Part shown: positions 4,601 to 64,000 of the stretch, in pieces
Layout of the letters: each line of letters begins with the position of its first letter
Position numbering within the stretch: the first letter of the stretch is position 1
Assembly (NCBI GenBank): GCA_965243745.1
Contig: CBDEVR010000002.1
Location: 1,237,986 to 1,301,985, forward strand
From: Dehalococcoidia bacterium
Lineage (GTDB): Bacteria; Chloroflexota; Dehalococcoidia; Lucifugimonadales; Australimonadaceae
Direction of reading: 5' to 3'
DNA length: 64,000 bases
Made by a program: the position numbers and the translations under genes
The notes under the pieces: model-generated
Told to the model about the DNA's origin: nothing
Database searches by the model: none
The model's input: the letters and a program-made list of their open reading frames with translations, nothing else

Positions 4601-5491
4601 TCACTCCCGCACCTCTATACCCGCGCGCTCCTCCGCCAGCATGAACGTCGCCAGGTTGTCCCACTCCCCCCAGCCGCGCTCGATCCCCTCCTCCATCACC
4701 CGCTTCGCCATCGCTGCCAACTCCATCGGCGCGCCCATCTCCTCCGCGAGCTCCTGGCCGAGGCTCACGTCCTTGTGCGCGAGCCGCAGCGAGAAGCGCG
4801 GCGTCTCGAAATCGCCCTTGAACACCACGTCCGGTATCTGCCTCAGCAGCGTCTGCTTACCGAACGCCGCGTCCCACAGCACCTGCAGCATCACCCCCGG
4901 GGCGACGCCTGCCTTCACTGCGAGCGTCATCCCCTCCTGCACGACGACGCGGGTCGTCAGTGTTATGGAGTTGTGCACCAGTTTCGCCACCGTCCCGGAG
5001 CCGATGGGTCCGACGTAGCTCACCCCTGTGCCGATCGCCTCGAACACCGGGCGCACCGCCTCGAACACGTCCCTGTCGCCACCCACCATCACTGCCAGCG
5101 TGCCCTGCTCCGCGCCGATGGTGCCGCCGCTCACCGGGGCGTCCAGCATGTGCGCCCCGATCGACTCGATGCGCTCCGCCACCTGCCGGATGCGCGTCGG
5201 CGACCCCGTCGACAGGTCGGCGTACACCGACCCCGGCTGCAGCCCCAGCGAGAGCCCCTGCGGCCCCAGCGCAACCTCTTCCACGTCCGCCGGCCCCGGC
5301 AGCGACGTCAGCACGACGGGCGCCTGCCGCGCGACCTCCACCGGCGTGTCGGCCCAGGTTGCGCCCATCTCCCGGTGCGGCGCCGTCTTCGCCTCGTCGA
5401 TGTCGTTCACGACGAGATCGTGCCCTGCCTTGATCAGGTTCAGGGCCATGGGCCCGCCCATGTTTCCGAGGCCGATGAATCCGATGCGCAT
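4601..5491 (-). CDS. NAD(P)-dependent oxidoreductase, 3-hydroxyisobutyrate dehydrogenase family
   Basis: MRIGFIGLGNMGGPMALNL Rossmann N-terminus. GGAGG Shine-Dalgarno upstream of ATG 5491. Confidence 0.85.
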   Translation of the reverse strand: MRIGFIGLGNMGGPMALNLIKAGHDLVVNDIDEAKTAPHREMGATWADTPVEVARQAPVVLTSLPGPADVEEVALGPQGLSLGLQPGSVYADLSTGSPTRIRQVAERIESIGAHMLDAPVSGGTIGAEQGTLAVMVGGDRDVFEAVRPVFEAIGTGVSYVGPIGSGTVAKLVHNSITLTTRVVVQEGMTLAVKAGVAPGVMLQVLWDAAFGKQTLLRQIPDVVFKGDFETPRFSLRLAHKDVSLGQELAEEMGAPMELAAMAKRVMEEGIERGWGEWDNLATFMLAEERAGIEVRE

Positions 5492-5650
5492 GGTCGCCTC
5501 CCCTCTGCTCCGCCTGATGGCGTCCTACGCCTCCCCGCGGGGCGGGGTGCGCCGCCGCGCAGTCTAGGCCGCACCCCTCTGAGGGTCAACGCGCGTCCTG
5601 CTCTCCGGCACTCCCGTGAAGCGGGGTATCCAGAGTACGATGAACCTGCG

Positions 5651-5708
5651 TTCTTCTGCAGTTTCTTCTGCAGACCCGTACGAGTGAACGGGACAATCTT
5701 CTGCAGAA
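5651..5708. repeat. three copies of TCTTCTGCAG flanking a short hairpin
   Basis: ttcttctgcag at 5651 and 5663; tcttctgcagaa at 5697 (perfect palindrome TTCTGCAGAA). Hairpin cccgt/acggg lies between copies 2 and 3. Confidence 0.6.
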
Positions 5709-6001
5709 AAAGATCTTTATCGGCAAGGCGGTGGCCTGCTTCCGCGTTCTTCCGTTCAAGATCCGCGCCGGGAGGGGGTGTGCAGCCGTCAGTCCATGGG
5801 CGCTATCTCCGGCGTAGCTCCCGGGGGGCTCTGTAATCGATAGCCAGGACAGGCGCAAAGGTCATGCACCCCAACGTACCCGTTGGCGGGGCGACAGCGA
5901 AAGAGGCGCGTGTCACACCCGACTCATCCATTGCCCGGATAGCGCGCCCCGCATAGCATGGCCGCACCCTCATCAGATCTCAGAGGAGCGGAGCGAAGCA
6001 C

Positions 6002-7113: not shown

Positions 7114-9831
7114 GTGGCAACGAAGCGTGGCGAACGGGCAGGGAACACGCAGGTGCGGGCCCTGCGGAACATCCTGGACATGGAGGCCGCCAACGGCTTC
7201 CCTGACAAGGCCGTCACAGGCGGGCTCGACCGCTTCCTCGAAACACTGCGCGGGCAGGCAGGCGCGGACCCGGCGCTGAGAACGCTGGACGAGCGCGGCC
7301 TGCTCTCCGTCGCCTACGCCGAGCTTGACCTGACACGGCGCGAACGCTGGGCAGGCGAGGTCAGTCGCTTCCTCGGCGACGCCAGGCCCACCGCTCATGC
7401 CCCGAAGCGCTCCGCCTCGCCGGGACCCCCGCCCGCCGCCCCACCGGACCGGGACCCGCTCGACGTGCCCCTGAGCACCTTGCGGAGCGTCAATCGCACG
7501 CAGGCCGCCGCCATCCGGCGAATGCTCATCAGGCGGCGCATGCTCACGCACCCCGGGGAGACCACCGTCGGCGACCTCCTCTACCTCTTCCCCCTGCGCC
7601 ATGCCGACCGCAGGGAGCGTACCGCCGTCGCCAGACTGCGCGTGGGGGAAGAACAGACGATCGAGGCCGCGCTCTGGGAGGCGTACGAGGTGCGGCTGGG
7701 GCGCGGCGGGCGCATCCGCGCCACCCAGGCCGTCGTCGGCGACGACTCCGGCAACATCCGGGTGCTCTGGTGGGGCAACCCGTGGATCGCGCAGCAGCTC
7801 AGGAAGGCGATCGCCGCGACGGCGCACACGCCCAGCGGCGTCCCCCGGGTCGTGCTCAGCGGCAAGGTGACCGTGTTCCAGGGCAAGAAGCAAATGGAGT
7901 CGCCGGAGTGGGAGCTGGCGGGGAGCGGCGACGCCTCCGGTCTCCACACAGCGGGCCTCGTCCCGTTCTACCCGACGGCCCCCACGACGAAGGGCAAACG
8001 CATACCGCCCCGCAGGATGCGCGAGATCGTCCGCGAGGCACTGGACAACACAAAGAAAGGCGGCGGCCTCCGCATCCCGGACCCGCTACCGGACGCCGTG
8101 CGCGAGGACGTGGGCCTCCTCACGCTCGGCGAGGCCATCGAACGGGCGCACTACCCGGACTCCGAGGACGCGAAGGAGCAGGCGCGGCGGCGACTCGCCT
8201 TCGACGAGTTTCTCGCGATCCAGCTCCGGGTCGGCATGGAGCGCAACTACACGTCCACTCAGGAGGGTATCGTCCTTCCCTTCTTCCCCCCGATGGTGGA
8301 GTCGTTCATCGCGTCGCTGCCGTTCATCTTGACGCAGGGCCAACGCGACGCGCTGGACGAGGCGATGCAGGACGTGTCGAGCGGCGGCAGGCCGATGAAC
8401 CGAGTGCTACAGGGCGACGTCGGTTCCGGCAAGACCGTGGTCGCCGTGGCGATGCTGCTCGCCGCTGTCGCGGGCGGCTACCAGGGCGCGATGATGGCCC
8501 CCACCGAGGTGCTCGCGGAGCAGCACTTCTTCAACCTGCGCCGCCTGCTCGGCGGCCCGGAGCACTCCTTGGAGAACCCGGACTGGTTCTCCGCTGTGTT
8601 GAAGGGTAGAGAAGAGCCCATCACCGTCGGCCTACTCACCGGCAGCACACGTGCCGCTCCCCGCCGCGAGATACTCAGGATGGCGGAGGACGGCTCGCTG
8701 GATTTGATCATCGGCACCCACGCGCTGATCCAGCGGCAGGTGGCGCTGCCGAACCTCGCCCTCGCCGTGGGCGACGAGCAGCACCGCTTCGGCGTCCTCC
8801 AGCGCGATGCGCTCCGCGGCAAGAGCGCCGTCGGCGAACCGCACCTGCTCCTCATGTCGGCCACGCCCATCCCGCGCACGCTCGCCCTGACGCTTTATGC
8901 TGGCCTGGAGATATCCACGATTCGGGAACTGCCGGCGGGGCGGCAGGCGATACTGACCCGCCGCGTCGACCTCGCCCGCGCCTCGGACGCCGAGCACTAC
9001 CTGCTGGCGCAGGTGCGCGAGGGACGCCAGTGCTTCGTCGTCTACCCTCGCATCGACGACGCGGACGATCGCTACAACGGCATTGATGATGACGACGATA
9101 CCGCGGACGAGGACTCCGACCTCGTTCCCGAATCCGCGTCGCTGCCTCCGCTCACCGCGGTTGCGGAGTACGAGCGCCTACGTTCCACCACCCTCGCGGA
9201 CGCGCGCGTCGGCCTGCTCCACGGGCGGATGCCCCTCCCGGAGAAGCAGGCCGTCATGGACGCGTTCCGGGCAGGGGAGGTCGACGTGCTCGTCTCGACC
9301 CCAGTCATCGAGGTCGGCATCGACGTGCCGAACGCCACGGTGATGATGGTCCAGAGCCCCACGCGGTTCGGACTCGCCCAGCTCCACCAGCTGCGGGGAC
9401 GCGTCGGGCGCGGCGCGCACCGCAGCTACTGCTTCCTCGTGTCGGAATCGGAAGACGAGACCTTCCAGCGCCTGAGCGAGGCGCGGCAGCGCCGCGTGGC
9501 GAACGGCGACGACTGGCGGGAGGTCGAGCAGTGGTTCCGCGCAGCCCTCGCGCAGGCGGAGTCGAGCAGGAATCGGCTGAGAGTATTCGTGGACAACAGC
9601 GACGGCTTCAAGATTGCGGAGGAGGATCATAAGACTCGGGGCCGTGGAGACTTCTTTGGCACGCGCCAGTCCGGTCGCGCCTTGGATGATCTTGGTGACC
9701 GGGACCTGCTCGAAGCGTCGCGCGAGCACGCCGGACACATCCTCGCTGCCGACCCCGAGTTGAGTACGCTCTCCGGCCTCCGCGATGCTGTCGACCGGCT
9801 CACCGCCGCCGTGACGGACGAGATGGCATAA
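7114..9831 (+). CDS. recG: ATP-dependent DNA helicase RecG
   Basis: Walker A GDVGSGKT, DEQH box, QLHQLRGRVGRG, RGRGDFFGTRQSG. Start uncertain: in-frame GTG 7114 or ATG 7180. The listed 6910 start overlaps the upstream gene. Confidence 0.9.
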   Translation: MATKRGERAGNTQVRALRNILDMEAANGFPDKAVTGGLDRFLETLRGQAGADPALRTLDERGLLSVAYAELDLTRRERWAGEVSRFLGDARPTAHAPKRSASPGPPPAAPPDRDPLDVPLSTLRSVNRTQAAAIRRMLIRRRMLTHPGETTVGDLLYLFPLRHADRRERTAVARLRVGEEQTIEAALWEAYEVRLGRGGRIRATQAVVGDDSGNIRVLWWGNPWIAQQLRKAIAATAHTPSGVPRVVLSGKVTVFQGKKQMESPEWELAGSGDASGLHTAGLVPFYPTAPTTKGKRIPPRRMREIVREALDNTKKGGGLRIPDPLPDAVREDVGLLTLGEAIERAHYPDSEDAKEQARRRLAFDEFLAIQLRVGMERNYTSTQEGIVLPFFPPMVESFIASLPFILTQGQRDALDEAMQDVSSGGRPMNRVLQGDVGSGKTVVAVAMLLAAVAGGYQGAMMAPTEVLAEQHFFNLRRLLGGPEHSLENPDWFSAVLKGREEPITVGLLTGSTRAAPRREILRMAEDGSLDLIIGTHALIQRQVALPNLALAVGDEQHRFGVLQRDALRGKSAVGEPHLLLMSATPIPRTLALTLYAGLEISTIRELPAGRQAILTRRVDLARASDAEHYLLAQVREGRQCFVVYPRIDDADDRYNGIDDDDDTADEDSDLVPESASLPPLTAVAEYERLRSTTLADARVGLLHGRMPLPEKQAVMDAFRAGEVDVLVSTPVIEVGIDVPNATVMMVQSPTRFGLAQLHQLRGRVGRGAHRSYCFLVSESEDETFQRLSEARQRRVANGDDWREVEQWFRAALAQAESSRNRLRVFVDNSDGFKIAEEDHKTRGRGDFFGTRQSGRALDDLGDRDLLEASREHAGHILAADPELSTLSGLRDAVDRLTAAVTDEMA

Positions 9832-9838
9832 TGCACCC

Positions 9839-10954
9839 ATGCGCGTCAGCAAGATGGAATGGCGGGGCGTCCGCGTCCCCCTGCGGCAGCCCGAGCTAGC
9901 CCTGGACCCGTCCAAGGCGGGCCGCAACGCGCTGCTCATCTGGATGCACATGGACAACGGTCTTGTGGGCGTGGGCGAGGCAGCCACCGCTGGGCCCGGA
10001 CGCCCGCCCCGCATCGCCGACCTCGCGGCGCTCCTGCACGACCTCGCCCCTTCGGCGCTGGGCCTGCACCCCGCCGTCGCCTTCGACATCCTCTCCGCGC
10101 TCGCCCCTCCCGGCTCGACCGGTAACGCGCTCCGCTTCGGGCTGGAGACCGCCGCGTTCGATGCCATGGGCAAGAACGCGGGACGCCCGGTGACCGACCT
10201 GCTCGGCGGCGTCATCGACTGGACGCCGATGGTGGGCCTGCTCGACTTTCTCCCGCCGGACGCGGCCGCGGAGCAGGCACGCGTCGCGGTGGAGGACGGC
10301 TACGAGTGCGTCAAGGCGTCGCTCGGCGCGCGTGACGCCGCTACGGATGTCGAGATCATCCGCGCCATCCGCCAGGCGATCGGCGACGACGTGGCGCTCC
10401 GCGCCGATGCGGACGAAGGCTGGACGGCGGAGCGCGCCATCCACACGGTCGAGCGGCTCGCTCCCTTCGACCTGGACTTCGTGGAGCAGCCCGTCATCGC
10501 GGAGGACATGAGCGGCCTCGCGCGCATCCGCAGCGTGTCGCCCGTGCCCATCGCCGCGGACGAGGCCGTCGGCGTGATGAGCGACGCCGTCAAAGTCGTG
10601 GAGGCGGAGGCGGCGGACGTGCTCGTGGTGAAGGCGGCGCAGGCGGGCGGCATCCGCGCCGCACAGGCCATCATGGCCTACGCCGCGCAGAACGGCCTGC
10701 GGAGCACTGTCTCCGCGTCGCTGGAAACGGGCGTCGGCATCGCTGCGGGCGTCCACCTCGCCGCTTCGCTCGGCAAGGCCGCTCCCGCGAGCCTCGGCGG
10801 AGGAGCCCGGCTTGAGTGCGACCTCCTCACGAAGCCGCTCGTCCCCGTTCGGGGGCATATCACCGTGCCGCACCTGCCCGGACTCGGCGTTGAGGTCGAC
10901 CAGGACGCGGTGGACCGCTACGCGACCGAGGTGGCCGGCGTCATCGCAGGCTAG
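9839..10954 (+). CDS. enolase-superfamily enzyme (mandelate racemase/muconate lactonizing family, OSBS or dipeptide-epimerase-like)
   Basis: Metal-ligand pattern RADADEGW, DFVEQP, IAADE typical of MR/MLE C-terminal barrel. Confidence 0.75.
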   Translation: MRVSKMEWRGVRVPLRQPELALDPSKAGRNALLIWMHMDNGLVGVGEAATAGPGRPPRIADLAALLHDLAPSALGLHPAVAFDILSALAPPGSTGNALRFGLETAAFDAMGKNAGRPVTDLLGGVIDWTPMVGLLDFLPPDAAAEQARVAVEDGYECVKASLGARDAATDVEIIRAIRQAIGDDVALRADADEGWTAERAIHTVERLAPFDLDFVEQPVIAEDMSGLARIRSVSPVPIAADEAVGVMSDAVKVVEAEAADVLVVKAAQAGGIRAAQAIMAYAAQNGLRSTVSASLETGVGIAAGVHLAASLGKAAPASLGGGARLECDLLTKPLVPVRGHITVPHLPGLGVEVDQDAVDRYATEVAGVIAG

Positions 10955-11035
10955 CCCCCGTCAGCCGTGCCTCTGCTATCATCCGCAACGGCCCGCCGGA
11001 ACCTCCCGGCCGGGCCGTCTATCGAGAGGGCAGCG

Positions 11036-12184
11036 ATGAAACTCCACGAATACCAGGCCAAGCAGTTGCTGGCCGCGTACGGCGTCCCTGTGCCGGAGAA
11101 CTACGTTGCGGCATCGGGCACCGAGGCCGCGACGGCTGCGGAGCGGCTCGGCGGCAGGGGCGTCGTCAAGGCGCAGGTGCACGCTGGCGGCAGAGGCAAG
11201 GCAGGTGGCGTGAAGGTCGCGTCCAGCCCGGCGGAAGCCGCAGAGATCGCCGGGTCGCTCATCGGTTCGACGCTCGTGACCTTCCAGACGGGGCCGCAGG
11301 GCGTGCCTGTCCACCAGGTGCTCGTCGAGCAGACGATGGATATCGAGCGCGAGCTGTACCTGAGCATCACCACCGACGGCGGGCGTCGGCGCCCGGTCGT
11401 CATCGCGTCGGCTGCGGGCGGCATGGAGATCGAGGAGGTCGCTCAGACCGAGCCCGAGAAGGTGCTCACCGAAGCCATAGACCCCGCCATCGGCTTCCAG
11501 CCATTCCAGGGGCGCAGGCTGGCCGCGGGACTCGGTCTTCCTCCTGCGCAGGTACGCCCGTTCTCCACCCTCGTGGGTGCGTGCTACCGCGCCTATACGG
11601 AGAAGGACTCCGGGATGATCGAGATCAACCCGCTCGTCCTCACGAGCGATGGGCAGTTGCTTGCGCTCGACGCGAAGATGGACCTCGACGACGACGCCCT
11701 CTTTCGCCACAAGGCGGAGGCCGGGCTGCGCGACGCCAGCCAGGACGATCCGCTCGAGGTGGAGGCGTCGGAGGCCGGCATCGCCTACGTGAAGCTGGAC
11801 GGCAACGTCGGCTGCATGGTGAACGGGGCGGGGCTCGCCATGGCGACGATGGACATCGTCAAGTTCGCAGGCGCCGAGCCGGCCAACTTCCTCGACGTGG
11901 GAGGCGGCGCCGCGGAAGAGAAGATCAGCCATGCCATCCTCCTCATGCTCTCGGACTCCAACGTCGAGAAGGTGCTGGTCAACATCTTCGGCGGCATCCT
12001 TCGCTGCGACATCGCCGCGCGGGGCATCGTGGACGCCTACGGCAGGGCCGACCGCCAACCGCCGCTCGTCGTACGGATGCTCGGCACCAATGTCGACGAA
12101 GGGAAACAGATCCTCGCCGAGTCGGGACTGACGGCGACGATGGTGGACACACTGGAAGAGGCGGCGGCGGCCATCAAGGGGTGA
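11036..12184 (+). CDS. sucC: succinate--CoA ligase subunit beta
   Basis: Internal ATG gives [23 protein letters not shown]-grasp and ligase-CoA domains ([10 protein letters not shown]). Confidence 0.95.
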
Positions 12185-12194
12185 TGGAGCAAGC

Positions 12195-13070
<876 letters not shown>

Positions 13071-13081
13071 GATAGGGGAGT

Positions 13082-13103
13082 GCAGAGGGGCGAGCCCCTC
13101 TGC
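13082..13103 (+). terminator. GC-rich hairpin after sucD
   Basis: gcagagggg-cgag-cccctctgc starts 12 nt after the stop. No U-tract. Confidence 0.4.
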
Positions 13104-13129
13104 TGCCGAAGGAGACGAGAGGCGTCGGC

Positions 13130-14314
13130 GTGGTCCTTCAGGAGTGGCAGGCCGTGAACCGTGGGGCACTGTTGGCGGAAGAGCGGCGCCGGTACGGTGC
13201 ACGCCGGCGCGCGAACCATTCGGGCGCGCTCCTGCCGGAATACCTGCTCGCGCGGCTGTGGCGAGCGAAGGAGGGGCGTTCACTGCACACGGTGGATGGC
13301 AGGCGTGTGAAGGTGCTGTACGCAGGCCGTCCCGCGCCTGGCCACGGCCCTGATTTCCAGGACGCCGTGGTCCGCATGGATGGCGAGCGCACGGCGGGGA
13401 ACGTGGAACTGCACCGTAAGCCCTCGGACTGGCATGCGCACGGCCACGATGCGGACCCGGCCTACGACGACGTCATGCTGCATGTCGTCGCGCAGGCGGA
13501 TGGTGCGGGACCCGGCGTTCCGACCGCCGAACTCAGCTGGGCTGAGCATCCCGGTACGGCTGAACCGCCGTTGATGGCGCAGCTTGCGCGAGCGTCCTCC
13601 GGCGAGCTCCGGGAGATGTTCCTACGCTCCGGCATGGCGCGCTTCCGCGAGCGCGTGGAGGCTGCGCGCCGCAGCGTCGAAGAGACCGGAGATGAGCAGG
13701 CGTTGCACGAGGCCGTCTTCGACGCCCTCGGCTATGCGGAGAACCGTGCGCCATTCCGCCGGCTCGCCGGAGCTGTTCCTGCCGTCGCGCTGCTGGGCCT
13801 GGCGCGGAGCCTCCCTGTAGACGAGCGTGCCGCAGCCCTGGAGCGCCTGCTGCTCGACGCGTCGGGACTTGACAGTGAGGCACAACGGCCTCACGGCGAC
13901 CGTCCTGCCTGGAAGACGGCAGGCGTGCGTCCGGTGAACCATCCGCGCGGTCGCATCCGCGGTGCGGCGGCCTTGCTGGCCCGTGTCTCCGAAGAGGGTT
14001 TGCTGGCTGCATGCCGACGAGCGGTTGCCGGGGGCAGCCCGGCGCTGGAGCAATTGTTCGTAGTGGAGGGTCCGGAGCAGGCGCTCATCGGCGCGGGCCG
14101 GGCAAGAGAGATCGTCGTCAACGCGGTGCTGCCGCTGCTCGCGGCGGTGGGCGACCCTCATGCAGAGGACCTTTTCATGCGATATCCGGCACTCCCTGAA
14201 AACACGCTGACCCGGGAGGCACGCCGACTTACAGGGGCGAAGGGGATGAGGCTCTCGGCGTGCGAGCAGTTGGGGCTTCTACGGCTCTACCGCGGCAGCA
14301 TCGCCGACGGCTGA
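13130..14314 (+). CDS. DUF2851 family protein
   Basis: GNVELHRKPSDWHAHGHDADPAYDDVMLHVV matches my recollection of the DUF2851 core. Confidence 0.7.
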   Translation: MVLQEWQAVNRGALLAEERRRYGARRRANHSGALLPEYLLARLWRAKEGRSLHTVDGRRVKVLYAGRPAPGHGPDFQDAVVRMDGERTAGNVELHRKPSDWHAHGHDADPAYDDVMLHVVAQADGAGPGVPTAELSWAEHPGTAEPPLMAQLARASSGELREMFLRSGMARFRERVEAARRSVEETGDEQALHEAVFDALGYAENRAPFRRLAGAVPAVALLGLARSLPVDERAAALERLLLDASGLDSEAQRPHGDRPAWKTAGVRPVNHPRGRIRGAAALLARVSEEGLLAACRRAVAGGSPALEQLFVVEGPEQALIGAGRAREIVVNAVLPLLAAVGDPHAEDLFMRYPALPENTLTREARRLTGAKGMRLSACEQLGLLRLYRGSIADG

Positions 14315-14322
14315 TCGGTCCG

Positions 14323-14892
14323 CTAGGCCGCGTAGATGAGCCGCAGCCCGCGCAGTACGAGACGGGGCAGGAATGAGAGCAGCCGGATCAACGCTGCCAT
14401 CGCAAGCGACCCCGCGACCCCGACGGCTGCCCCGGCCAGTACGTCTGTTGGGTAGTGCACGCCCGCGTAGACCCGCGCCAATCCCCAGCAGAAGGCCAGT
14501 GCGTACAACGCTCCGCCCAACCGGCGATGACGCAGGAATACGGCCGTGGCAAGCGCGAAGCCGACCGAAGCTGTGTTGGAGGGGAACGACGGGTCTGTCG
14601 GCGCATAGAAGAGTAGCGTCAGGTCGTTATCCACGAAAGGCCGTGGGCGCTCGACGATACCGTTGATGATGGTGGTGATGGCGTTGGCTGCGCCGATACC
14701 GCCCGCGGCGATCATCGTCGTGATCTGGTTCAGCGGGCGGGTCTCATGTGTGCCCGTCATCCAGAGCGCGACGAGCACCAGGCTTCCTGTCACAGGAACG
14801 AAGTAGTCGCTCACCAGCACTTCCATCACCCCGTCGAACAGAGCGACGTTGCTGACCCCCGAATTCAGAAAGCGAACTATCGCGCCGTCCAT
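14323..14892 (-). CDS. PAP2 family phosphatase (undecaprenyl-diphosphatase-like)
   Basis: Internal ATG 14892 (MDGAIVRFLNSG). PAP2 motifs RPRP, PSFPSNTASV, ARVYAGVHYPTD. Confidence 0.85.
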   Translation of the reverse strand: MDGAIVRFLNSGVSNVALFDGVMEVLVSDYFVPVTGSLVLVALWMTGTHETRPLNQITTMIAAGGIGAANAITTIINGIVERPRPFVDNDLTLLFYAPTDPSFPSNTASVGFALATAVFLRHRRLGGALYALAFCWGLARVYAGVHYPTDVLAGAAVGVAGSLAMAALIRLLSFLPRLVLRGLRLIYAA

Positions 14893-15329
14893 CAGCGCGA
14901 CCCCCTGATTGTTGCCTTGATGCGAGCAGCGAGTGCTCGTGCGAACGTCGTGCGCTCCAACCACGTGAGCCCGGCAGGTGGACAGCGCTCCTCGGTGGGG
15001 TCCCAGCCATGCGAGGCGCCCCACCGGTGGTTGACTACGGATGAGACCCCGATCTGGATGAACAAGGAGACCGTTGCCGCCAGCGCGAACCACCGAGCCT
15101 GTTCGACGCCGTCCAAGCCAGCCCCCGTATCCGGCAGGTTGCGGTCCTCGCTGATGAAGAACCACGCGAACGCACCGATCACGATGAGCGCGGAGCAGAC
15201 CTTCGTCGCGGTGGGCCACCGCCGCAGGATGACGAAGCCCCACAGCCCGTTGTTGGCCGCGGCGTACTGCGCCACCCCAAGCGTTCCGAGGGCGACCCAC
15301 AGGGCGTACGCGGCCTCGAAGTCGGACAT
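14892..15329 (-). CDS. hypothetical membrane protein
   Basis: 145 aa with several hydrophobic spans. Stop overlaps the PAP2 start (TGATG). No recognised family. Confidence 0.55.
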   Translation of the reverse strand: MSDFEAAYALWVALGTLGVAQYAAANNGLWGFVILRRWPTATKVCSALIVIGAFAWFFISEDRNLPDTGAGLDGVEQARWFALAATVSLFIQIGVSSVVNHRWGASHGWDPTEERCPPAGLTWLERTTFARALAARIKATIRGSR

Positions 15330-61211: not shown

Positions 61212-62027
61212 TCAGCCTTCTGACAGCCACTCGTCCGGCCCGCCGAGGCCGTGCTCGAGGTTCCAGTCTGCGGCGTAGATGACCTTACCGGTGACGCCGG
61301 TCGACGCGGTCTGCGCCGCGAAGAACTTGGCGAGCGGCACGACCGACTCCGGTTTCAGCGGTATCGCGCCTGCGGCCATGATGCCGTGCTCCTTGCGGAT
61401 GATGTCCTGCTCCCGCGTGCCAGTGGTGGCGGCGTGCGGAGGGAACAGCACGTTGACCGCCACGTTGTACTCCGCGATCTCGTTCGCCAGGTAGAGCGAG
61501 AGGTTCGTGAGCGCGGACTTCGACGCCATGTACGGCTGCTCCCGGCTGTGGGGCCGGTACCAGCGCGGGTCCGTTCCAGTGGTGGAGACGTTGATGATGC
61601 TCCCTGCGCGCTTCTCCAGCATCGGCTGCACGAAGGTACGGATCATGGCGAGGGTGCCAAAGACGTTGACGTCGAACATGCGCCGCCAGTCCTCCGGCGG
61701 CACGTCCAGCACCCTGCCGATGCCGTGCGGGGGGATGATGTGCCGCTGCCGCATCCCCGCGTTGTTGAGCAGCACGTCCACCGTCCCGAAACACTCCATC
61801 GTTGCCGAGAACGCCGCCTCGATGTGGTCTTCGCGGGTGACGTCCAGCTCGAGAGCGAGCCCTCCTGCCGCCTCCACGACTGCCTGCGTCTCTTCCGCGC
61901 CGTCGCCGTTCCATGAGAGGTCGCCGCAGACGACGCGACAACCCTCGTCGAGGAAGCCGTAGGTATAGGCGCGGCCCATGCCCCTCGCCGCGCCGGTGAT
62001 CACCACCACCTTGTCTTCCAGTGTCAC
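61212..62027 (-). CDS. SDR family oxidoreductase
   Basis: GTG start. TGAARGMGRA and YMASKSA (YxxxK). Confidence 0.85.
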   Translation of the reverse strand: MTLEDKVVVITGAARGMGRAYTYGFLDEGCRVVCGDLSWNGDGAEETQAVVEAAGGLALELDVTREDHIEAAFSATMECFGTVDVLLNNAGMRQRHIIPPHGIGRVLDVPPEDWRRMFDVNVFGTLAMIRTFVQPMLEKRAGSIINVSTTGTDPRWYRPHSREQPYMASKSALTNLSLYLANEIAEYNVAVNVLFPPHAATTGTREQDIIRKEHGIMAAGAIPLKPESVVPLAKFFAAQTASTGVTGKVIYAADWNLEHGLGGPDEWLSEG

Positions 62028-62113
62028 TGCTTGCCCTCGCGCGATGTGCGCGGGACAACCTACGCCCTCTGCGGCTGAACGGCAACCGTGCCGCGGGCAA
62101 GCGAAAGAGGCGG

Positions 62114-62188
62114 GAACATGCGTTCTAAAGCGTGTTGACAGTGTAGAACAATCGTTCTAATATGCCTCCCAGCGTAGCACATGCGTTC
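62114..62188 (+). promoter_or_regulatory. three LexA-type (GAAC-N4-GTTC) boxes
   Basis: gGAACatgcGTTCt at 62114..62125; aGAACaatcGTTCt at 62146..62157; aGcACatgcGTTCt at 62177..62188. Centres are 32 and 31 bp apart. Confidence 0.65.
62135..62163 (+). promoter_or_regulatory. near-consensus sigma70 promoter
   Basis: TTGACA (62135..62140), N17, TAATAT (62158..62163). The middle SOS-like box fills the spacer. Confidence 0.65.
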
Positions 62189-62204
62189 TGCCAGGAGTAG
62201 CGAG

Positions 62205-63524
62205 ATGAAGACGCCAACGACATATCAGCGTGAGATAGCCACTGCGGTAGCGTCGGACCTGTTCCGGCAAGGAGGCTCGGTGTTCACGGTGGAGATGCCG
62301 CTCGGATCGGGTGTTGGGGAACTGGCCTCCCAGTTGGAGATGCTGGTGATGAGCGTGAACGTGAACGCAGGCGGGTCCCTGCTCCGCGTCGTTCCCGGTG
62401 GACAGCCAGACGTGAAGGACCGACTCGTGAGTCACCTGCGCGCTGGTTCGTTGCGAGGGCTCTGGTCGGACGAGCGCTCGTGCGTGCGCCTTGGCCGCGC
62501 ACAGGTGCGGTACGCGGCGCCGGAAGACCTCGCAGGTATCGATGGGGATTTCGAGTTGGTCCAGGCGGTCGATGTCCACCTGTTCAGCCCGGATGAAATG
62601 GAGCGCCTCAAGGAGGTCGCCGGCGCTTCGGACGCGACGCTCGTGCTCTACGGGCGTCCGTGGAATGGCGAAACTGCCTTCGAGCGGGTGAAGCTTGCCA
62701 ACAAGGAGGCTGCCGCTGCGGGAGCGCCGCGCAGGCACTTCCGCGCTCCCCTGGAGTCCGCCGAGGCGGAACTGCCCGGCTATGCGGAACGGGTCGAGGT
62801 CGAACGCGAACGGCTTGGTCCTGCGCATCCGGAGTTCGAGACGGCGTATGCGCTCCGCCCCGTCTCCCCGAACACCCCGGCCTTTCCCCGTGAGCGGCTG
62901 CGCGCCCTGTTCGGAGCCGGTGGCCCGCGGCGGCTCGGGGTCGCCGACAGGCTCACGGCGTCCGTCGTGGTGACGCGGCTTCCTGAAGAAGGCGTGCTTC
63001 ACGACGCGTGGGCTACGGCCGTCGTGGCCGTCGCTTCGCGTGCGGGAGACGGGCTGCGGGTGCTCGACCACAAATGGGTGGAAGCGCCGGACGTCGAGAC
63101 ACTCGTTGCAGGCATCAAGCGGTTCGTCGAGAAGACGTGGCCCTGCGAACGGGTCCTCGTGAGGGCGCGTGCTCCTTGGAGCGATGGTGCGGTGAAGAGG
63201 CTGCTGGAGAGCAGCCTGAGGCCGGGCTATATGCGGTGGCTCCCGGACACGGCGCGGCAGCGCGAGCGCGAATCGTCCGCCGCTGTCGCTGCGGCACTCA
63301 CCGGCAGGCTGGAGTTCTATGCGCCCGACGGCTCCCCGGAGTACAGGGCGCTGCGCCGCGAGATGGAGTGGGCTGTGCTGCGTCTCGGCCAGGGGCGCGG
63401 CTTCACCGTTGCGGTGGAGGGACGGGACGAAGGATTCCTGGAGGGTGTCTCGATGCTTGCCAATGAGGATGCGGAGCAGGCGGAGGAACAGCAGATGTCG
63501 TTCCCCGTCGCGATCGCGTCCTGA
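62205..63524 (+). CDS. hypothetical protein, possibly terminase-large-subunit-like with degenerate motifs
   Basis: Internal ATG 62205 after AGGAG. YQREIATAV N-terminus and overall ATPase-plus-nuclease-like layout, with GSGVGE in place of Walker A GKS/T and VDV in place of DE. Confidence 0.6.
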   Translation: MKTPTTYQREIATAVASDLFRQGGSVFTVEMPLGSGVGELASQLEMLVMSVNVNAGGSLLRVVPGGQPDVKDRLVSHLRAGSLRGLWSDERSCVRLGRAQVRYAAPEDLAGIDGDFELVQAVDVHLFSPDEMERLKEVAGASDATLVLYGRPWNGETAFERVKLANKEAAAAGAPRRHFRAPLESAEAELPGYAERVEVERERLGPAHPEFETAYALRPVSPNTPAFPRERLRALFGAGGPRRLGVADRLTASVVVTRLPEEGVLHDAWATAVVAVASRAGDGLRVLDHKWVEAPDVETLVAGIKRFVEKTWPCERVLVRARAPWSDGAVKRLLESSLRPGYMRWLPDTARQRERESSAAVAAALTGRLEFYAPDGSPEYRALRREMEWAVLRLGQGRGFTVAVEGRDEGFLEGVSMLANEDAEQAEEQQMSFPVAIAS

Positions 63525-63601
63525 TGCGTGTTGCCTGGACGGACGGAACCCGAGAACGCATGGATAGCCGTTATGAAGCGGAATGACCGGAAGGAGGAAC
63601 G

Positions 63602-63919
63602 ATGAGCATCTACACGAAGTCGAGACGCAGGCGCGATGAACCGGCCGTGGATGGGCTGCCGGAACAGATGCGCTACACCGACACCGGCTGCGAGGCGTCG
63701 ATGTCGTGCCTGGAGTGCCCCTTGCCTCGCTGCAGGTTCGACGACCCTGCGTGGTACCAGGCCTACAAGCTGCGGGAGCGGGACGAGGAGATCGCCTGGG
63801 CTTACCAGTACGAGAACCTGCACGTCTTCGAAGTGGCGAGCCGGTTCGGCATCAGCGTGCGTACGGTGCATCGCGCGCTTCGCCGGATACAGACTGCGCC
63901 GCTCCCAAGCGCAGCCTGA
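63602..63919 (+). CDS. Cys-cluster plus helix-turn-helix protein
   Basis: AAGGAGG SD. CEASMSCLECPLPRC followed by HTH FEVASRFGISVRTVHRALRR. Confidence 0.6.
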   Translation: MSIYTKSRRRRDEPAVDGLPEQMRYTDTGCEASMSCLECPLPRCRFDDPAWYQAYKLRERDEEIAWAYQYENLHVFEVASRFGISVRTVHRALRRIQTAPLPSAA

Positions 63920-63961
63920 CCCGCATCCACGATCAGCACCAACCGAGGCAACACCGATGAA

Positions 63962-63993
63962 AGAGAGGCCGGTACATCGTTACCGGCCTCTCT
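63962..63993 (+). terminator. perfect 13-bp hairpin
   Basis: agagaggccggta-catcgt-taccggcctctct starts 43 nt after the stop at 63919. Weak T-tract. Confidence 0.5.
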
Positions 63994-64000
63994 TCGTGAA

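Follow-up and report, generated by a model that had tools for sequence, protein, structure and literature searches.

Predicted LexA-type operator triplet on the promoter of a pseudo-terminase operon in Dehalococcoidia

The lexA promoter of B. subtilis carries three LexA sites. In E. coli, recN has three SOS boxes and the colicin genes have two overlapping boxes; several LexA sites on one strong promoter result in very tight, late-induced expression of a possibly harmful product. LexA-controlled phage elements are known from Bacillus phage GIL01, Vibrio CTXphi and coliphage 186 (tum), and the gene transfer agent of Rhodobacter depends on LexA. In the phylum considered here, the LexA of Dehalococcoides ethenogenes reportedly binds GAACN4GTTC, a finding attributed to Fernandez de Henestrosa et al. 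in 2002. GAAC-N4-GTTC is the LexA box of B. subtilis (PMC4234289). A phage-derived protein tied to stress in another way is the terminase of prophage Gifsy-1, which is reported to act as a tRNase under oxidative stress (PMC11610961).

The locus studied here lies near the end of a 64-kb window (the whole stretch of DNA that was analysed, 68% G+C). Its boxes share with the Cheo (LexA, DinR) boxes of B. subtilis and other Gram-positive-type bacteria the GAAC-N4-GTTC repeat, the overlap of sites with the promoter and the spacer preference, with AT following GAAC as in CGAACATATGTTCG. They differ from known Cheo boxes in their flanks, which are A/T here (AGAAC...GTTCT) and C/G there, and in tolerating GTGC and GTAC half-site variants, for which the cyanobacterial RGTAC-type box is a closer likeness. 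The three-site layout (~32 + ~30 bp) is also fixed throughout the lineage, and the cargo is not a repair gene. The multi-operator SOS promoters of E. coli are similar in that several sites serve one strong promoter, but they belong to another phylum, their motif is CTGT-N8-ACAG, and their sites overlap instead of being spaced by whole helical turns. Judged from sequence, the likeness to GIL01, CTXphi, 186 tum and the Rhodobacter gene transfer agent would lie in the use of host LexA as a direct switch for phage-derived genes. In contrast to those elements, the boxes of the ancestral Dehalococcoidia module described below sit on the promoters of the structural genes themselves, and the window keeps two genes, one of them predicted to be enzymatically dead. 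The Gifsy-1 terminase and the present gene would both be prophage-derived, chromosomal and tied to a stress response, here through a predicted LexA operator. Compared with phage TerL, the full two-domain fold is present and the catalytic motifs are replaced. Our literature search found no report linking Dehalococcoidia, terminase and LexA. The predicted switch is an ordinary Cheo-type SOS operator with a multi-site layout; the unusual part is its cargo and history.

The features of the locus are listed in Table 1. The first-pass annotation had described three AGAAC-N4-GTTCT-type boxes around a TTGACA-N17-TAATAT promoter, and a pattern search confirmed them; 27 other genomes have the same three boxes and the TTGACA upstream of the orthologous gene. 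The location given for the array, 62114-62188, was right, with each end one base short (62113-62189); the sequence of the whole region is gcGGGAACATGCGTTCTaaagcgtgTTGACAgtgTAGAACAATCGTTCTAATATgcctcccagcgtAGCACATGCGTTCTgccaGGAGtagcgagATG. The promoter (62135-62163) was the only sigma-70-like one found by promoter search in 61900-64000. Box 2 fills its 17-nt spacer, and the last T of the box is the first T of the -10 hexamer. With its flanks, box 2 reads TAGAAC-N4-GTTCTA (62144-62159). It had been called a perfect 16-bp palindrome, but TAGAACAATCGTTCTA is a perfect 6+6 inverted repeat around an asymmetric 4-bp spacer, AATC. Box 1 stops 8 nt short of the -35 hexamer and is centred at about -50 relative to the predicted transcription start. 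Box 3 starts 12 nt past the -10 hexamer (about +6 to +19) and therefore lies within the predicted 5' untranslated region, where it would serve as a roadblock position. Boxes 2 and 3, one touching the -10 hexamer and the other in the leader, are thus both placed to interfere with RNA polymerase.

Table 1. Coordinates of the operators, promoter elements, genes and hairpin of the locus (window positions)
Feature	Position	Strand	Sequence or basis
Box 1 (distal operator)	62113..62126	.	GGAACATGCGTTCT; pattern search
-35 hexamer TTGACA	62135..62140	+	promoter search
Box 2 (core operator)	62145..62158	.	AGAACAATCGTTCT; pattern search
-10 hexamer TAATAT	62158..62163	+	17-nt spacer from -35 hexamer
Box 3 (proximal operator)	62176..62189	.	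AGCACATGCGTTCT; pattern search
Gene 1, 439 aa, TerL homolog with replaced catalytic motifs	62205..63524	+	AlphaFold2 and structure search
Gene 2 (p105), 105 aa, four cysteines and C-terminal helix-turn-helix	63602..63919	+	profile searches, model
Perfect 13-bp G+C-rich hairpin	63962..63993	.	3' of p105 stop codon

The GAAC-N4-GTTC core is exact in boxes 1 and 2 and has one mismatch in box 3. Boxes 1 and 3 each combine one perfect GTTCT half with one poor half-site, which in box 1 is degenerate (nnnAC, then AT). The box centres are 32 bp (1 to 2) and 31 bp (2 to 3) apart. Phasing at about three helical turns, as had been proposed, agrees with these distances; for box 3 it holds only to about +/-2 bp, the range among orthologs being 29-33 bp. 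Elsewhere in the window, one site with no more than one mismatch was found, at 5641, where ~0.6 would be expected. Three-site clusters within 80 bp are expected by chance about 2e-7 times in the window, and a chance origin of the cluster was rejected on this ground.

The site at 5641 is a fourth Cheo-like site, TGAACCTGCGTTCT, in a 510-bp intergenic gap between a 3-hydroxyisobutyrate-dehydrogenase-like gene on the minus strand and an oxidoreductase gene on the plus strand. It is directly followed by three copies of TTCTTCTGCAG, the last of which forms the palindrome TTCTGCAGAA. These sites, at 5641-5711, may be a separate operator set.

To describe the conservation of the layout, we compared the window with 27 loci whose gene 1 proteins are 42-77% identical to that of the window, giving 28 orthologous promoters from Dehalococcoidia/SAR202 genomes. 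The three-box anatomy was present upstream of all 27 loci, three of which (L014, L015 and L017) have no box 3. TTGACA was invariant in all 28 promoters, and the -10 hexamer was TA(A/G/T)TAT in most. Both half-sites of box 2 were near-invariant around a variable 4-bp spacer, and the consensus over the 28 orthologs was tAGAAC-RnnY-GTTCTa. Box 1 was nnnACATnnGTTC(T/C) in 28/28 promoters, with a distance to box 2 of 32-33 bp in every case; box 3 was found in 25/28, 29-33 bp from box 2 and most often at 30 bp. In one sub-clade box 3 is inverted (AGAACnnATGTGCG), the mirror image of the box 1 of that sub-clade, as expected for the site of a symmetric dimer. Between the window and the close orthologs compared, dS was 0.8-1.1, so that synonymous sites are near saturation; conservation of the layout over such distances therefore reflects selection, and by this sequence comparison the boxes are under strong phylogenetic constraint. 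In over half of the loci, different genes stand in place of the divergent SDR gene upstream and the boxes stay, which shows that the boxes belong to the downstream operon. The SDR gene was rejected as the main target for the same reason.

We then asked which sites precede lexA in Chloroflexota. Searches with tblastn, using E. coli, B. subtilis and M. tuberculosis proteins, found neither lexA nor recA in the window or in 81 related loci. Chloroflexota lexA genes were identified by Pfam PF01726 and PF00717 (LexA_DNA_bind and Peptidase_S24) and by source names. A metagenome scan for the box together with a LexA N-terminal motif gave 120 lexA loci. Since the search pattern itself required GAACNNNNGTNC upstream, the presence of boxes at most of the lexA loci found is partly circular; this is offset by loci L202-L204 and by features that the pattern did not demand, namely promoter position, flanking bases and a second GTGC box. 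In two Chloroflexota LexA subfamilies, lexA has boxes in or adjoining its own TTGACA/-10 promoter, and the box at Chloroflexota lexA reads (T/G)AGAAC-N4-GTTCT(A). The usual layout is TTGACA-N2-GAAC-N4-GTTC-N3-TAnnAT, in some cases with a second box, GAACAAGYGTGC. The GAAC-N4-GTGC variant found at Chloroflexota lexA also occurs in boxes 1 and 3 of the window family. In lexA genes retrieved solely through protein homology, (T/G)AGAAC-N4-GTTCTA immediately follows the -10 hexamer. The three motif sets, from the window family, the pattern-fetched lexA and the homology-fetched lexA, agree.

The Chloroflexota lexA loci used were from Anaerolineales or without class-level taxonomy, so the match to the LexA box of the host itself is made at phylum level. 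Protein database searches with the two Chloroflexota LexA types returned only Anaerolineales or unclassified Chloroflexota, there being no SAR202 target genomes among them, and tblastx of the lexA contigs against the fetched loci gave no taxonomic link. One low-G+C lexA candidate (L083) was dropped because it proved to be from Lachnospiraceae. Taken with the B. subtilis box and the constraint on the sites, the phylum-level lexA promoters support the earlier reading of the array as a putative LexA (Cheo-type) operator.

The lexA leaders of L092, L094, L140 and L198 also have a conserved element in common, AGCACAAATGAACG, which lies some 10 nt past the -10 hexamer and whose half-sites are arranged differently from those of a normal Cheo box. 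In an uncultured Chloroflexia genome (L063, 1842-1855), a perfect AGAACAATTGTTCT box lies by a TATAAT upstream of genes for a 136-aa cysteine-containing protein and a radical-SAM-like protein. These genes may be host members of the same regulon.

The controlled genes had been described as uncharacterised; gene 1 is now recognised by its fold as a TerL homolog, and gene 2 as a four-cysteine helix-turn-helix protein. Gene 1 is preceded by a ribosome-binding site, GGAG, at 62194-62197. It had no match in Pfam, PHROG, NCBIfam or PADLOC, nor in a profile search against PDB sequences, and only structure revealed TerL. The AlphaFold2 model (pLDDT 87, pTM 0.85) gave the full-length large terminases Sf6 gp2, D6E TerL (TM 0.63-0.67), HK97 and T4 gp17 as top PDB matches in Foldseek, all with probability 1.0; the highest TM score was 0.67. 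According to the model, gene 1 has a complete two-domain TerL fold with an N-terminal ASCE ATPase and a C-terminal RNase H-like nuclease domain.

Intact terminases have a Walker A pattern RQxGK[ST], as in T4 gp17, and a Walker B of the form hhhhDE. In alignment A1, the distant homologs of gene 1 have ARQGGKN as Walker A and VDESQD as Walker B, and the window clade has PLGSGVG and AVDVHL at these positions. No member down to 40% identity in this alignment retains the Walker lysine, the arginine or the catalytic glutamate, and the Walker B register is backed by a weak alignment to TnsC IIDEAD. The nuclease motifs GIDLAG, VVDATG and HDDF are SVVVTR, VLVRAR and DEGF in the window clade (alignment A1), so that the nuclease domain has had two or three of its acidic residues replaced. 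In the distant homologs (25-31% identity), both Walker motifs and the nuclease aspartates are still in place. The dN/dS of gene 1 was 0.15-0.25, which shows it to be under purifying selection. The catalytic residues are replaced and the gene is nevertheless constrained; we therefore regard it as a retained 'pseudo-terminase'. It is predicted from its sequence to be enzymatically dead, and it would not be expected to package DNA or to act as a nuclease in the manner of the Gifsy-1 terminase.

Gene 2, p105, carries the motif Cys-x5-Cys-x2-Cys-x4-Cys, with the invariant form GC-x5-C-x2-CP-x3-C. The four-cysteine part matched no known family among curated family models. The C-terminal helix-turn-helix resembles sigma-70 region 4, Fis or Mor at sub-threshold similarity: Sigma70_r4_2 scored 19.7 bits against a cutoff of 25.7, TIGR02937 gave a sub-threshold match in 24/33 p105 members, and PDB entries for Mor and PrrA were matched at E about 0.01-0.03, also sub-threshold. 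The three-helix unit of this part was predicted with pLDDT >90. p105 is 88-95% identical among close orthologs, and its dN/dS was 0.04-0.16 in comparisons within the clade of the window. A search of 1.84 billion representative proteins placed ~360 clusters in the family at E<=1e-10, and the p105 homologs in phage-like modules adjoin terL and portal genes.

The 81 nt from 63920 to 64000, which include the hairpin 3' of p105, fold at -31.4 kcal/mol (z = -5.0). The hairpin has no T-run and so is not a canonical intrinsic terminator; it probably marks the end of the operon between convergent genes. In L205, a near-identical 15-kb contig, the gene after p105 is on the opposite strand, and the operon therefore consists of two genes.

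Gene 1 has 58 homologs, each of them in a metagenome-assembled genome of Chloroflexota. When species-representative genomes were scanned, 78 loci emerged, all from Dehalococcoidia/SAR202-type or unclassified Chloroflexota. In loci of the window type, the TerL-like gene and p105 stand alone between host genes, and no portal or capsid gene was seen. Distant TerL homologs adjoin genes for an SPP1-type portal, an HK97-type capsid and an SU10-type adaptor. They belong to a module of ~10 kb that is widespread in Dehalococcoidia and was found, for example, in L065 (9130-19724), where it sits between host genes, in L080 and L028, and in about 50 other loci. The module comprises small genes and genes for TerL, p105, portal, a scaffold-like protein, major head protein, SU10-type adaptor and a large unknown protein. 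Among the genes of the modules examined, none was recognised as an integrase, replication or lysis gene.

In ~48/53 distant loci, a AGAACATATGT(G/T/A)CT box lies 0.4-1.7 kb upstream of terL and heads its operon, and in many of these loci the p105-portal and scaffold-capsid operons are preceded by boxes as well. A TTGAC-like hexamer accompanies 52/78 module boxes, nearly always 4-5 nt upstream of the box, and most of the remaining boxes have near-matches to it. The base after the box is A in nearly every context listed, and the last T of the box starts a TAnnnT-like -10. At each operon of the module, an AGAAC-N4-GTNCT box occupies the spacer of a consensus promoter, the same arrangement as that of box 2 in the window. 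The shared arrangement and the module content identify the window locus as a two-gene remnant of the module in which a single operator was extended to three. By the same sequence evidence, both genes descend from a head and packaging module of phage-like type, with LexA-type boxes, that is common in Dehalococcoidia. The hunch that the switch was phage-like was borne out: the cargo includes a relic of a phage terminase, and a phage-like cluster is served by this operator across the class. The constancy of the box in ~48/53 distant modules of very different G+C argues for a conserved host factor. The module may resemble a gene transfer agent and be inducible by the SOS response.

In L028-L030 (~8800-15200), intact-looking TerL, p105 and portal genes are followed by an opposite-strand gene of 432 aa and then by a boxed scaffold-like gene, after which no recognisable capsid gene was found. 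These loci look like intermediate decay states of the module.

The boxes could instead be operators of p105 itself, serving autoregulation and, in the ancestral module, all of the structural operons as well; the resemblance to a LexA box would then be coincidental, or the sites would be shared by p105 and LexA. p105 is a DNA-binding-type protein and is more conserved than gene 1. Every boxed locus encodes it, often directly downstream of a box, so that co-occurrence alone cannot separate LexA from p105. However, boxed lexA promoters were found without p105 among the genes called ~1-3 kb on each side of lexA, and 35/39 IMG/VR viral contigs with p105 homologs have no box. The helix-turn-helix of p105 in the boxless L206 is nearly identical to that in L026 and L027, which have triple boxes. 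Regulators of mobile elements usually diverge in specificity, whereas this motif is constant in hosts from ~45% to ~68% G+C. These sites would in any case be bound by whatever Cheo-type LexA the cell has. Control by p105 is in our judgement improbable. A different dedicated repressor encoded elsewhere, such as a relative of HTH_17, might also bind the boxes, and some distant modules do encode a small HTH_17 protein by a box-bearing promoter. The gene is absent from the window locus and its orthologs, however, and LexA already explains the motif and its spread, which makes such a repressor very unlikely.

Near terminase genes, the sites that the terminase recognises often take the form of phased repeats. 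Here a TerL-like gene lies next to the boxes, and viral contig L240 has two three-box arrays with an exact 33-bp period, as would suit pac/cos-like packaging repeats bound by a small-terminase-like protein such as p105, with no role as a transcriptional operator. The ancestral modules, on the other hand, have single boxes at two to three promoters, in a constant register between -35 and -10, and array A of L240 lies between the integrase gene and the following genes, which we read as the position of a lysogeny switch. Moreover, the TerL homolog of the window lacks ATPase and nuclease motifs and its locus lacks portal and capsid genes, so nothing is left to package. The operator geometry and the TTGAC-like -35 / TAnnnT -10 register in the modules led us to reject the packaging-site explanation, which we hold to be extremely unlikely. 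Even taken together, other repressors and a packaging role are quite improbable. The array is with good probability, as judged from sequence, a cluster of LexA (SOS) operators that sits on a strong promoter of housekeeping type and has the pseudo-terminase and p105 as its cargo.

For this LexA operator cluster, we infer LexA binding, cooperativity between the sites and induction by damage as follows. In the undamaged cell, a LexA dimer on box 2 would exclude RNA polymerase. Boxes 1 and 3, which are weaker and about three helical turns away, would load further dimers on the same face of the DNA; these would stabilise occupancy cooperatively, and the dimer on box 3 would add an elongation roadblock in the transcribed leader. 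Upon DNA damage, RecA-stimulated self-cleavage of LexA would free the promoter, and the two-gene operon for the dead TerL homolog and p105 would be transcribed.

A further-reaching reading, to which we give only a small chance, is that the operon arose by exaptation of a phage module and has taken on a new SOS-triggered role, and that LexA directly gates a domesticated, GTA-like particle-forming module across Dehalococcoidia. If true, the dead terminase would be made only at LexA cleavage, which is also the moment of prophage induction. The pseudo-terminase could then act as a poison of, or a decoy for, the packaging motors of phages that invade or are induced, or call terminase-sensing immunity into action, and p105 would be a second-tier DNA-damage regulator. 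How genes are regulated in SAR202 and other uncultured Dehalococcoidia, groups abundant in sponges and in the deep ocean, is almost entirely unknown. The locus provides a confidently predicted SOS operator and promoter, from which the LexA regulon of these organisms can be delineated by computation. The locus is also a clear case of phage genes kept under (predicted) host damage control, in which the terminase fold is retained under purifying selection and its chemistry is lost. The class-wide phage-like module is a candidate SOS-inducible gene-transfer or defence system. The three-site design is open to testing in B. subtilis, where LexA recognises this core too.

Phased triplets occur a second time in the viral contig L240 (IMGVR_UViG_3300043543_000580), which encodes a large serine integrase, an SNF2-type helicase and a p105 homolog. 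Its arrays, at 4856-4935 and 11909-11990, consist of three 33-bp units each, with a G(C/A/G)ACA(A/T)ATGTTC box per unit. Because one of them is placed between the integrase gene and the genes after it, this phage may use host LexA as a lysogeny switch.
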